Of a stretch of 59,951 bases of DNA, positions 20,418 to 21,486 are shown one piece after another. Where the stretch lies: positions 1 to 59,951 of IMG/VR virus record IMGVR_UViG_3300035683_000005; one strand, given 5' to 3'. Under the pieces are notes generated by a model. It was not told where the DNA came from. It worked only from the letters and a program-made list of their open reading frames with translations, and made no database searches. The position numbers were made by a program, and so were the translations under genes. Each line of letters opens with the position of its first letter. The first letter of the stretch is position 1. Source of the stretch: a virus.

Positions 20418-20623
20418 TGCTGGACCTCAGCATTAAGCAGCTTGTTACCGTTCGGAATTACATCGTCGAAGGCATAAACGCTGTGAAGCCTTGGACGGAG
20501 TTGCCGGCGGAGCACCAGATGGGGTCGCCCGAGCGGCTCGCCTACCTGGAGGAGTTGTTGTCTCAGGTTGATGAAGAACTTGAACTAAAAAGGGCACACG
20601 CATGTCAAGCGGAACAATCCTAA
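20417..20623 (+). CDS. Hypothetical protein, 68 aa, inside the deazaguanine cluster
   Basis: ORF track. TGATG coupling to queE. Confidence 0.5.
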   Translation: MLDLSIKQLVTVRNYIVEGINAVKPWTELPAEHQMGSPERLAYLEELLSQVDEELELKRAHACQAEQS

Positions 20624-21486
20624 TTCTGTCCGGCGGGCAGGATTCGACGACGGTGCTGTTCTACGCTCGTCAGCAATACTCGGACAGCCCCGTTCACGCC
20701 ATCACCTTCGACTACGGACAACGCCACTCACGCGAGATCGACGCCGCCAGGATCGTTGCGCGGTTGGCTGGAGTGGCGTCGCACGAGGTTCTCGAACTCC
20801 CCCTCGACATCCTCAAGGGCACATCGCCGCTGATCTCGCAAGAACCTCTCGAGCAGTACGCTGACCACAGATCGCTCCCAGGCGGTCTAGAGAAGACGTT
20901 CGTGCCCATGCGGAACCAGCTTTTCCTCACGGTCGCCTTCAACCGCGCGGTGTGTCTCGGCGCACGACGCATCCTGATCGGCGTTTCGCAGGAGGACTAC
21001 GGCGGCTATCCGGACTGCCGTAGGGAGTTCGTCAAGTGGGCCGAGCGGGCTTCAAACATCGGTCTCGGTCTCACACAGCTCAGCACTCCCGCCCAAGGTT
21101 ACATCGAGGTGGAGACACCGCTCATGTCGCTCAGCAAGGCGGAATCGGTGGAGCTTGCGCTCAAGCTACCTGGGTGCTACGAGGCACTCGCGTTCAGTCA
21201 CACGAGCTACGACGGCGAGTACCCACCGCTCGGCAAGGACCACGCGACGCTGTTGAGGGCTAAGGGCTTCGAGGAGGCGAACGTCCCCGATCCACTTATC
21301 CTGCGTGCGGTCTACGAAAACCGCATGCAGCTGCCGAACAGCCCTACCTATAGGCAGAACCCGGACATCGCCGACTTCTACGGGCGTGTCGCCGAAGCGG
21401 TGGACAGAGAGCGGGCGTATCGGCGCCGGGAAGCGGAACAAGGGCAGTTTCCCGCCTACGAGAAGCGCGGCAGGGAGGGTGTCTGA
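20602..21486 (+). CDS. queC: QueC-like 7-cyano-7-deazaguanine synthase homolog. Atypical: the Zn-binding cysteines are absent and there is a C-terminal extension of about 60 aa.
   Basis: [15 protein letters not shown] and GGYPDCR motifs are present. The region that aligns with the canonical TCYxG...CGxCxxC reads [20 protein letters not shown]. Confidence 0.8.
   Translation: [294 protein letters not shown]

Follow-up and report, generated by a model that had tools for sequence, protein, structure and literature searches.

A phage QueC-family protein without the four zinc-binding cysteines, encoded in a preQ0 DNA-modification module

The stretch of DNA analysed here (IMG/VR virus record IMGVR_UViG_3300035683_000005, positions 1 to 59,951; the window) belongs to an uncultured tailed phage and encodes a 294-aa protein of the QueC family from which all four zinc-binding cysteines are missing. 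Gene calls were taken from the source record (metagenomic contig of 59,965 bp, GCA_034691575.1). The protein is a QueC-family variant and not a canonical QueC: membership of the family is seen in homology and fold, and one hallmark is lacking, the zinc motif C(x)8CxxCxxC of a 2026 family survey (PMC13329287), for which reason it was filed as a variant. The Cys-less trait defines a large clade of phage QueC proteins. It is likely that the window protein is a catalytically competent synthase of 7-cyano-7-deazaguanine (preQ0) feeding the DNA transglycosylase DpdA, with the zinc knuckle replaced and a C-terminal extension stabilising the C-terminal subdomain. The gene and its elements were placed as follows.

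20602..21486, + strand: queC, 294-aa QueC-family protein without the Zn(Cys)4 site (open reading frame (ORF) and translation, Pfam, TIGR00364, AlphaFold2 (AF2) model, fold matches)
20629..20646, + strand: PP-loop SGGQDS, residues 10-15, the ATP pyrophosphatase motif (alignments)
20713..20736, + strand: YxQxHxxE element, YGQRHSRE, residues 38-45 (Y38, Q40, H42, E45; Y38 corresponds to E. coli Y35)
20902..20916, + strand: VPxRN element, VPMRN, residues 101-105 (V101, P102, R104, N105; R104 corresponds to E. coli R99)
21007..21018, + strand: YPDC, Y136-C139 (Y136 corresponds to E. coli Y131)
21199..21258, + strand: former zinc-knuckle region, residues 200-219 (alignments to 2pg3 and 3bl5, residue statistics in homologues)
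21280..21354, + strand: clade-conserved part of the C-terminal extension, residues 227-251 (93 homologues, AF2)
21355..21483, + strand: lineage-variable tail, residues 252-294 (AF2 secondary structure and per-residue confidence, pLDDT)

The zinc positions were located by HMMER alignment to the QueC structures 2pg3 and 3bl5 and by a MAFFT alignment of 14 sequences, among them QueC of B. subtilis, Pectobacterium, phage Seurat, phage Rosebush and a Campylobacter phage. Zinc cysteines 1 to 4 of the canonical T-C-Y...C-G-x-C-x-x-C aligned opposite S202, L210, D213 and T216. Three cysteines are present in the whole protein (C118, C139 of YPDC and C192), none of them at or between the four zinc positions. 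The essential tyrosine that lies within the former zinc region was retained (Y203, E. coli Y189).

The elements SGGxDS, YxQxHxxE, VPxRN and YPDC were defined as the QueC-family signature in the 2026 study, in which part of the signature was shown to be essential; in the E. coli enzyme, Y35, R99, Y131 and Y189 proved indispensable (PMC13329287). Equivalents of all four are kept in the window protein, and by alignment L75, K165 and Y189 of the E. coli enzyme correspond to L77, K179 and Y203. Residue statistics were gathered from 93 close homologues, from 57 diverse Cys-less representatives and from 47 representatives that carry all four cysteines (Cys4). The SGGxDS PP-loop was invariant in both alignments and was present in every one of the 57 Cys-less and 47 Cys4 representatives. 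The catalytic residues were equally conserved in these two sets.

The reading frame begins with ATG, continues for 294 codons and ends with TGA at 21484-21486. An AAGGG Shine-Dalgarno-like sequence was found upstream of the ATG, and the stop shares bases with the start of queD (TGATG, the A of TGA being the first base of ATG). The gene call in the source record, made independently, matches the ORF exactly. Pfam QueC (PF06508) was matched with E=8e-49 over residues 6-226, scoring 166.4 bits against a threshold of 22. The NCBIfam equivalog TIGR00364 was passed marginally (157.9 bits, cutoff 150.3); the score for the enterobacterial-type equivalog NF008317 was below its cutoff (136.9 bits, cutoff 378). 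A PHROG QueC match was also obtained. In a sequence search of solved structures only the QueC proteins 2pg3 and 3bl5 were matched, at 33-43% identity depending on the alignment.

The AF2 model, built with 93 homologues, had a pLDDT of 89.6 and a predicted template modelling (TM) score (pTM) of 0.90. Its best PDB matches in Foldseek were again 2pg3 and 3bl5 (TM score normalised to the target, 0.74-0.81), and the Rossmann-type N-domain and helical C-domain of the QueC fold are both present. The protein thus shares with canonical QueC the fold, the PP-loop, the signature motifs, the L75/K165/Y189 equivalents and clustering with queD, queE and folE. It differs in the loss of the four cysteines, in short insertions at about residues 85-95 and 155-167, and in a structured extension of about 50-60 aa.

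The QueC of B. subtilis can be aligned as far as residue 227 of the query; 67 residues lie beyond this point, against about 7-20 in canonical QueC, which gives a net C-terminal extension of about 50-60 aa. An earlier sequence-only reading of the window had described intact N-terminal and central QueC motifs, absence of all four zinc cysteines and an extension of about 60 aa. Each description held when the protein was aligned to characterised QueC: the motifs are all present at the residues listed above, the cysteines are missing in the alignments to 2pg3 and 3bl5 and in the MAFFT set, and the extension is of the size just given.

Two parts of the extension were distinguished. In the first, P229, D230, P231, L232, R235 and P245 were invariant and N249 and Y250 nearly so among the 93 homologues. 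The sequence of residues 252-294 varies, but homologues share a recurring helix-like stretch that contains an aromatic residue (DFYGRV in the window protein; EKYLELL, ECYARV and DLYHRL elsewhere). AF2 placed helices at 231-238, 248-251 and 256-279, all with pLDDT >90. The last of these is amphipathic and is followed by an Arg/Glu/Gly-rich end of low confidence; confidence was high up to about residue 280, and low values were confined to the final 10-15 residues or so. The model superposed on the BFVD model of QueC from Iggyvirus PBPA162 over 257 columns with a root-mean-square deviation of 1.9 Å (TMq 0.80). A Pfam scan of the extension alone matched no family.

The extension goes with the loss of the cysteines. 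The median length past the DPL motif was 49 aa in Cys-less and 9 aa in Cys4 proteins, and at least 20 aa followed the motif in 54/57 of the former and 8/47 of the latter. A similar segment, RAxxEGxLPxxYP, is already borne by a few Cys4 proteins, a hint that the extension predates the loss of the cysteines. This handful of sequences hints that the extension may have arisen first and may have rendered the zinc knuckle dispensable.

The clade was delimited by homologue searches. The 120 best homologues from a 5.8-billion-protein database (56-68% identical, 246-304 aa) were all Cys-less and share the pattern SHT[SAG]...LPxTxNY; the best 80 viral loci in IMG/VR were likewise Cys-less (80/80). The first ~25 residues of the extension recurred in all 120 proteins and at all 80 loci. 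These sets were chosen by similarity to the query; they attest to a large clade and do not imply that cysteine loss is the rule among phage QueC proteins. A search of 1.84 billion representatives at 50% identity with the 70-residue C-terminal module returned 205 matches at E<=1e-3, 76 of them at E<=1e-10. Among isolated phages the module was present in about 43 of 342 QueC-bearing records, the hosts being Rhizobium, Pseudomonas, Stenotrophomonas, Dinoroseobacter, Sphingomonas, Variovorax, Achromobacter, Aminobacter, Acinetobacter, Edwardsiella, Vibrio, Microcystis and Pseudanabaena.

A sequencing or assembly frameshift that created a false C-terminus, the error by which the sequence-only reading had allowed that it might be undone, was rejected by this comparison. 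Nothing except the unusual sequence speaks for it. The same frame, motif and extension were found in the 120/120 homologues, the 80/80 IMG/VR loci and the ~43 isolated phage genomes, the queC stop overlaps the queD start, and the C-terminus was modelled with high confidence; there is practically no chance that the divergent end is an artefact.

Members of the clade have already been deposited and are routinely annotated as QueC. No account of a zinc-less QueC was found in the literature consulted (the Iggy paper, PMC10484667; Hutinet 2019; Cui 2023; a 2016 review; PMC13329287). A review of the Zur regulon mentions queC solely as Zur-regulated.

Some relatives of the window QueC, 450-580 aa long and drawn from the Cys-less as well as the Cys4 proteins (P0145, P0209, P0217 and P0212), are interrupted near YPDC by LAGLIDADG, intein-splicing or HNH domains, that is, intein or homing-endonuclease domains. 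Such interruptions would fit a functional importance of the genes that contain them.

The only experimental anchor for the product of the clade is Pseudomonas phage Iggy. The sole deazaguanine detected in its DNA by liquid chromatography-tandem mass spectrometry was the deoxynucleoside of preQ0 (dPreQ0), at 16.9% of deoxyguanosine, and no deoxynucleoside of 7-amido-7-deazaguanine (ADG; dADG) was present (PMC10484667). In Iggy (Iggyvirus, Queuovirinae) dPreQ0 is placed at GA motifs (PMC10484667). Iggy QueC belongs to the same Cys-less clade and is 48% identical to the window protein; it is much longer (353 aa) and has N/N at the Cys3 and Cys4 positions where the window protein has D/T. The gene order of Iggy matches that of the window (queE, small ORF, queC, then queD, folE, dpdA), with an extra small ORF between queC and queD, and the order in Bhz54 is the same as in the window apart from small intervening ORFs. 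The Iggy paper called this QueC 'prolonged' and dissimilar to CAjan QueC, and did not mention the loss of the zinc site (PMC10484667). A search for other clade-bearing phages with measured DNA modifications found none. By analogy, Iggy supports dPreQ0 as the product of the clade.

An enzyme that performs only the step from 7-carboxy-7-deazaguanine (CDG) to ADG, with DpdA then inserting ADG so that the DNA carries dADG, was weighed against this. The sequence-only reading had raised such a stop, and a changed base in the DNA, as a possibility. There is precedent in QueC* of Campylobacter phages, a proposed ADG synthase that occurs together with complete dADG substitution (PMC10516641), and in the window protein the C-terminal subdomain that bears the essential tyrosine has been remodelled. 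Like the window protein, QueC* is a QueC homologue that phages encode within a pathway for deazaguanine modification of DNA. However, the Campylobacter-phage QueC (CJLB-12), which shares 28% identity with the window protein, keeps its four cysteines and departs instead in its catalytic motifs: YGSNH and FPDC stand where the window protein retains the canonical YGQRH and YPDC. No residue essential for preQ0 formation has been lost from the window protein, and Iggy, with a Cys-less QueC, has dPreQ0 and no dADG. The QueC of Rosebush and of Seurat-type phages, which are dPreQ0 phages, also retains Cys4. With Cys4 found in both QueC* and the Rosebush and Seurat proteins, and a Cys-less enzyme going with dPreQ0 in Iggy, cysteine status does not track the product. 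The suggested change of base thus finds no support, and an ADG-only enzyme is quite improbable here.

The preferred reading, a preQ0 synthase feeding DpdA, draws on the intact catalytic signature, on the position of this gene as the sole queC in a complete folE-queD-queE-dpdA module, and on the occurrence of Cys4 relatives in similar modules, which together point to a functional enzyme. ATP would be spent at the PP-loop to activate CDG, as in canonical QueC, the CDG being supplied by the adjacent FolE, QueD and QueE. Ammonia would be added to give ADG, and dehydration of ADG to preQ0 would consume a second ATP. DpdA, encoded downstream, would then swap guanine in the phage DNA for preQ0, leaving dPreQ0, an anti-restriction modification. 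What is new would lie in the architecture of the C-terminal helical subdomain and not in the chemistry. In place of the Zn(Cys)4 knuckle stand small residues, polar or aliphatic (S/A, variable, D/N, T/S/N), which most likely form a hydrogen-bond and packing network, and the added segment of two to three helices would stabilise the subdomain that positions the essential Tyr203. Judged from sequence, the preQ0 synthase of the window phage is probably zinc-independent; this, its activity, its product and compensation by the extension are all predicted here.

Several points weigh against such an enzyme. Zinc was reported as required for canonical QueC function (PMC13329287), which makes an active zinc-free form an extrapolation. 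The host QueC of Iggy could in principle supply the preQ0 found in that phage. Finally, H200, D213 and H214 were invariant and C192 was at least 90% conserved in the 93 close homologues. This last point, together with the position of D213 at Cys3, would speak for a normal preQ0 synthase whose metal site has been re-ligated without cysteine, for example by His200, Asp213 and His214 and perhaps Cys192. The other residues of the region invariant in this set were T201, Y203, D204, G205, P208, P209, G211, A215, L218 and R219. In the 57 diverse Cys-less representatives the four zinc positions were occupied as follows.

Cys1 position: S in 27, A in 20, C in 7, D in 2, G in 1
Cys2 position: variable (V, T, L, N, I, R, gap)
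Cys3 position: D in 40, N in 17
Cys4 position: T in 28, S in 19, N in 7, A in 2, G in 1

Position 214 was His in 46/57 of these and R, L, E, N, A or Y in the remaining 11. H200, H214 and C192 are also frequent in Cys4 relatives with a complete zinc site (HTCY...CHAC; PGC), and so belong to an ancestral framework and are not new ligands. The variability of the replacement residues across the clade argues against a new metal site, and Ala at Cys1 with the Asp/Asn swap at Cys3 appears to be better explained by a network of hydrogen bonds and packing contacts than by a conserved metal site. Alternative zinc ligands in equivalent positions, which the sequence-only reading had named as grounds for giving it up, are made unlikely by this variability, and a re-ligated enzyme is accordingly given a low likelihood.

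'C-minus' paralogues of Cys4 zinc proteins (DksA2 and the C- forms of ribosomal L31, L36 and S14) are zinc-independent. They resemble the window protein in that a structural Cys4 zinc site is lost while fold and function are kept. They differ in being Zur-regulated cellular back-ups, whereas the window queC is the sole copy and stands in a phage operon. Zinc-type motifs can still be read in the sequence of the neighbouring FolE (HCEHH, HLCM), so that a general zinc-sparing strategy is not evident in the window phage.

Another possibility is that the zinc-free subdomain and the lineage-specific tail dock QueC on DpdA or QueE for channelling, and that in some lineages ADG is released. If this were true, the members of the clade would differ in the DNA modification that they specify, the window lineage with its Arg/Glu-rich tail included; the odds for it are put as low.

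A Cys4 subfamily with the same framework, HTCYxGxxPPCGxCHACLLRxKGFxEAGxxDPL, was found in a search of 185,579 species genomes and in the representative search. It has every subfamily-specific feature in common with the Cys-less proteins, for example TSPL, LPGG[LI], PGC..AL, G..PP and KGFxEAGxxDPL, and differs from them systematically only at the four cysteines and past the DPL motif, a few residues after which the Cys4 relatives stop. The nearest two, L007 (MEWP01000016.1, Zixibacteria metagenome-assembled genome (MAG)) and L010 (CAZUVD010000015.1, Coxiellaceae MAG), are 56% identical to the window protein and stand in a full module of queC, queE, queD, folE, dpdA, clamp and polA. Since these nearest relatives sit in similar phage modules, the zinc site therefore appears to have been lost inside a phage QueC lineage with no change of gene context. 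The species genomes held four Cys-less matches, all on phage-like contigs (L006, L008, L009, L011). More distant members of the Cys4 'CHAC' subfamily are cellular and occur in cyanobacteria. In a neighbour-joining tree, calculated with no support values and serving as a rough guide, the Cys-less sequences formed one broad group beside the 'CHAC' group.

The contigs L007, L009, L010 and L011 are 24-58 kb long and were binned into bacterial MAGs; L009 and L011 carry most of the module. All four are probably phage or prophage and not host chromosome.

One sub-group (P0155, P0156, P0158, P0168, P0181, P0186 and P0187) reads HTCYDGxYPPNPxNHASLLRAKGF, the pattern C-N-N-S, in which only the first zinc cysteine is kept, and has a related extension, RAKxEGLLPxDYPxxG. 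Judged by sequence, these proteins appear to stand midway between the Cys4 and the Cys-less forms.

The genes around queC were assigned from Pfam and PHROG searches and the gene calls.

13677-14495: Cas4-type exonuclease (Pfam/PHROG, gene call)
14499-16319: helicase (Pfam/PHROG, gene call), with several small ORFs between it and queE
19659..20417, + strand: queE, radical-SAM CDG synthase (Pfam Radical_SAM and Fer4_12, gene call)
20417..20623, + strand: 68-aa ORF linking queE to queC (gene call)
21486..21983, + strand: queD, 6-carboxytetrahydropterin (CPH4) synthase (Pfam PTPS, E=4.5e-22)
21950..22888, + strand: folE, GTP cyclohydrolase I (Pfam GTP_cyclohydroI, E=6.9e-73, residues 122-300; gene call)
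23617..24549, + strand: dpdA, DNA 7-deazaguanine transglycosylase, the consumer of preQ0 (phrog_887, E=2.4e-68; gene call start 23638)
25188-26150: sliding clamp (Pfam/PHROG, gene call)
26605-28647: PolA (Pfam/PHROG, gene call)

Apart from the 68-aa ORF, queE, queC, queD and folE are contiguous. This ORF starts within the stop of queE and overlaps the start of queC by 22 nt; it had no family match in Pfam or PHROG searches, and the small ORFs at the same position in Iggy (73 aa) and Seurat (62 aa) showed no detectable similarity to it. Two small ORFs separate folE from dpdA. The assignment of dpdA agrees with weak PADLOC DpdA matches and with the position of DpdA in Iggy and Bhz54. Together with dpdA the deazaguanine genes adjoin replication genes (Cas4 exonuclease, helicase, clamp, PolA), as in modules of the Queuovirinae type. 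Within 8 kb of queC at the best 80 IMG/VR loci, QueE and FolE were each found in 75 cases and DpdA in 69; contig ends account for most of the remainder. No second QueC homologue was found in the 60-kb window, and no QueF, ArcS or Gat (glutamine-amidotransferase) domain in the eight module ORFs scanned against Pfam. A nucleotide search of the region against isolated phages gave no match; PolA of the window shares at most 57% identity with its counterparts in 42-kb phages isolated on Stenotrophomonas and Pseudomonas.

Other genes in the neighbourhood were noted. A DUF2786 protein is encoded at 17034-17756. Directly 5' of queE, at 19039-19581 (+ strand), lies an Ala/Pro/Thr-rich ORF of 177-180 aa that matches only function-unknown PHROGs (phrog_18634). 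FolE has an N-terminal extension of about 120 aa (window 21950-22345) with a motif resembling a phosphoribosyl pyrophosphate (PRPP) loop, VFVDDIIDSGRT, and a faint, sub-threshold Pfam match to Pribosyltran (E=0.081); FolE of Bhz54 is comparably long (297 aa). Between dpdA and the sliding clamp, at 24788-25195 (+ strand), a 135-aa YAcAr protein (YspA/cpYpsA-related SLOG) was identified (Pfam, E=1.3e-12).

The context also bears on whether the window protein works at all. Loss of a hallmark motif could signal decay, and most hosts encode a QueC that could carry out the last step in place of an inactive phage remnant. Against this, the catalytic residues are strongly conserved over at least 57 clusters at 50% identity and hundreds of metagenomic loci, the position in the operon is conserved, the stop/start overlap with queD suggests translational coupling, and the predicted fold is confident. 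A decaying or inactive remnant is very unlikely.

QueC-fold proteins have been repurposed several times (PMC13329287), and Cap9 was a lower-ranked fold match to the AF2 model; the protein might on such grounds act like DpdC on preQ0 already embedded in DNA, giving ADG-DNA, or deazaguanylate proteins like QatC or Cap9. PADLOC, however, gave a weak PP-loop match to its QueC model (34.9 bits, residues 5-62), and no DpdC-like match, the presence of a DpdC model in the library being unconfirmed. The canonical substrate-pocket signature is retained, where the QatC active site was reported to be remodelled (PMC13329287). With such a role the phage would lack an enzyme for CDG to preQ0 despite encoding FolE, QueD and QueE, and Iggy has no dADG. 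This repurposing is most improbable.

A large and strongly conserved phage clade thus lacks the four cysteines and retains its catalytic signature as well as its position within the preQ0/DpdA operon. As a natural experiment, the clade bears on whether zinc has a structural or a catalytic role in QueC. For annotation, a missing cysteine motif alone should not be taken as loss of preQ0 synthase function, nor as a switch to dADG. By analogy with its relatives the window phage is predicted, most likely, to carry dPreQ0-modified and restriction-resistant DNA. The expected biological outcome, dPreQ0 in the DNA, would be ordinary; the structural variant is real and widespread.

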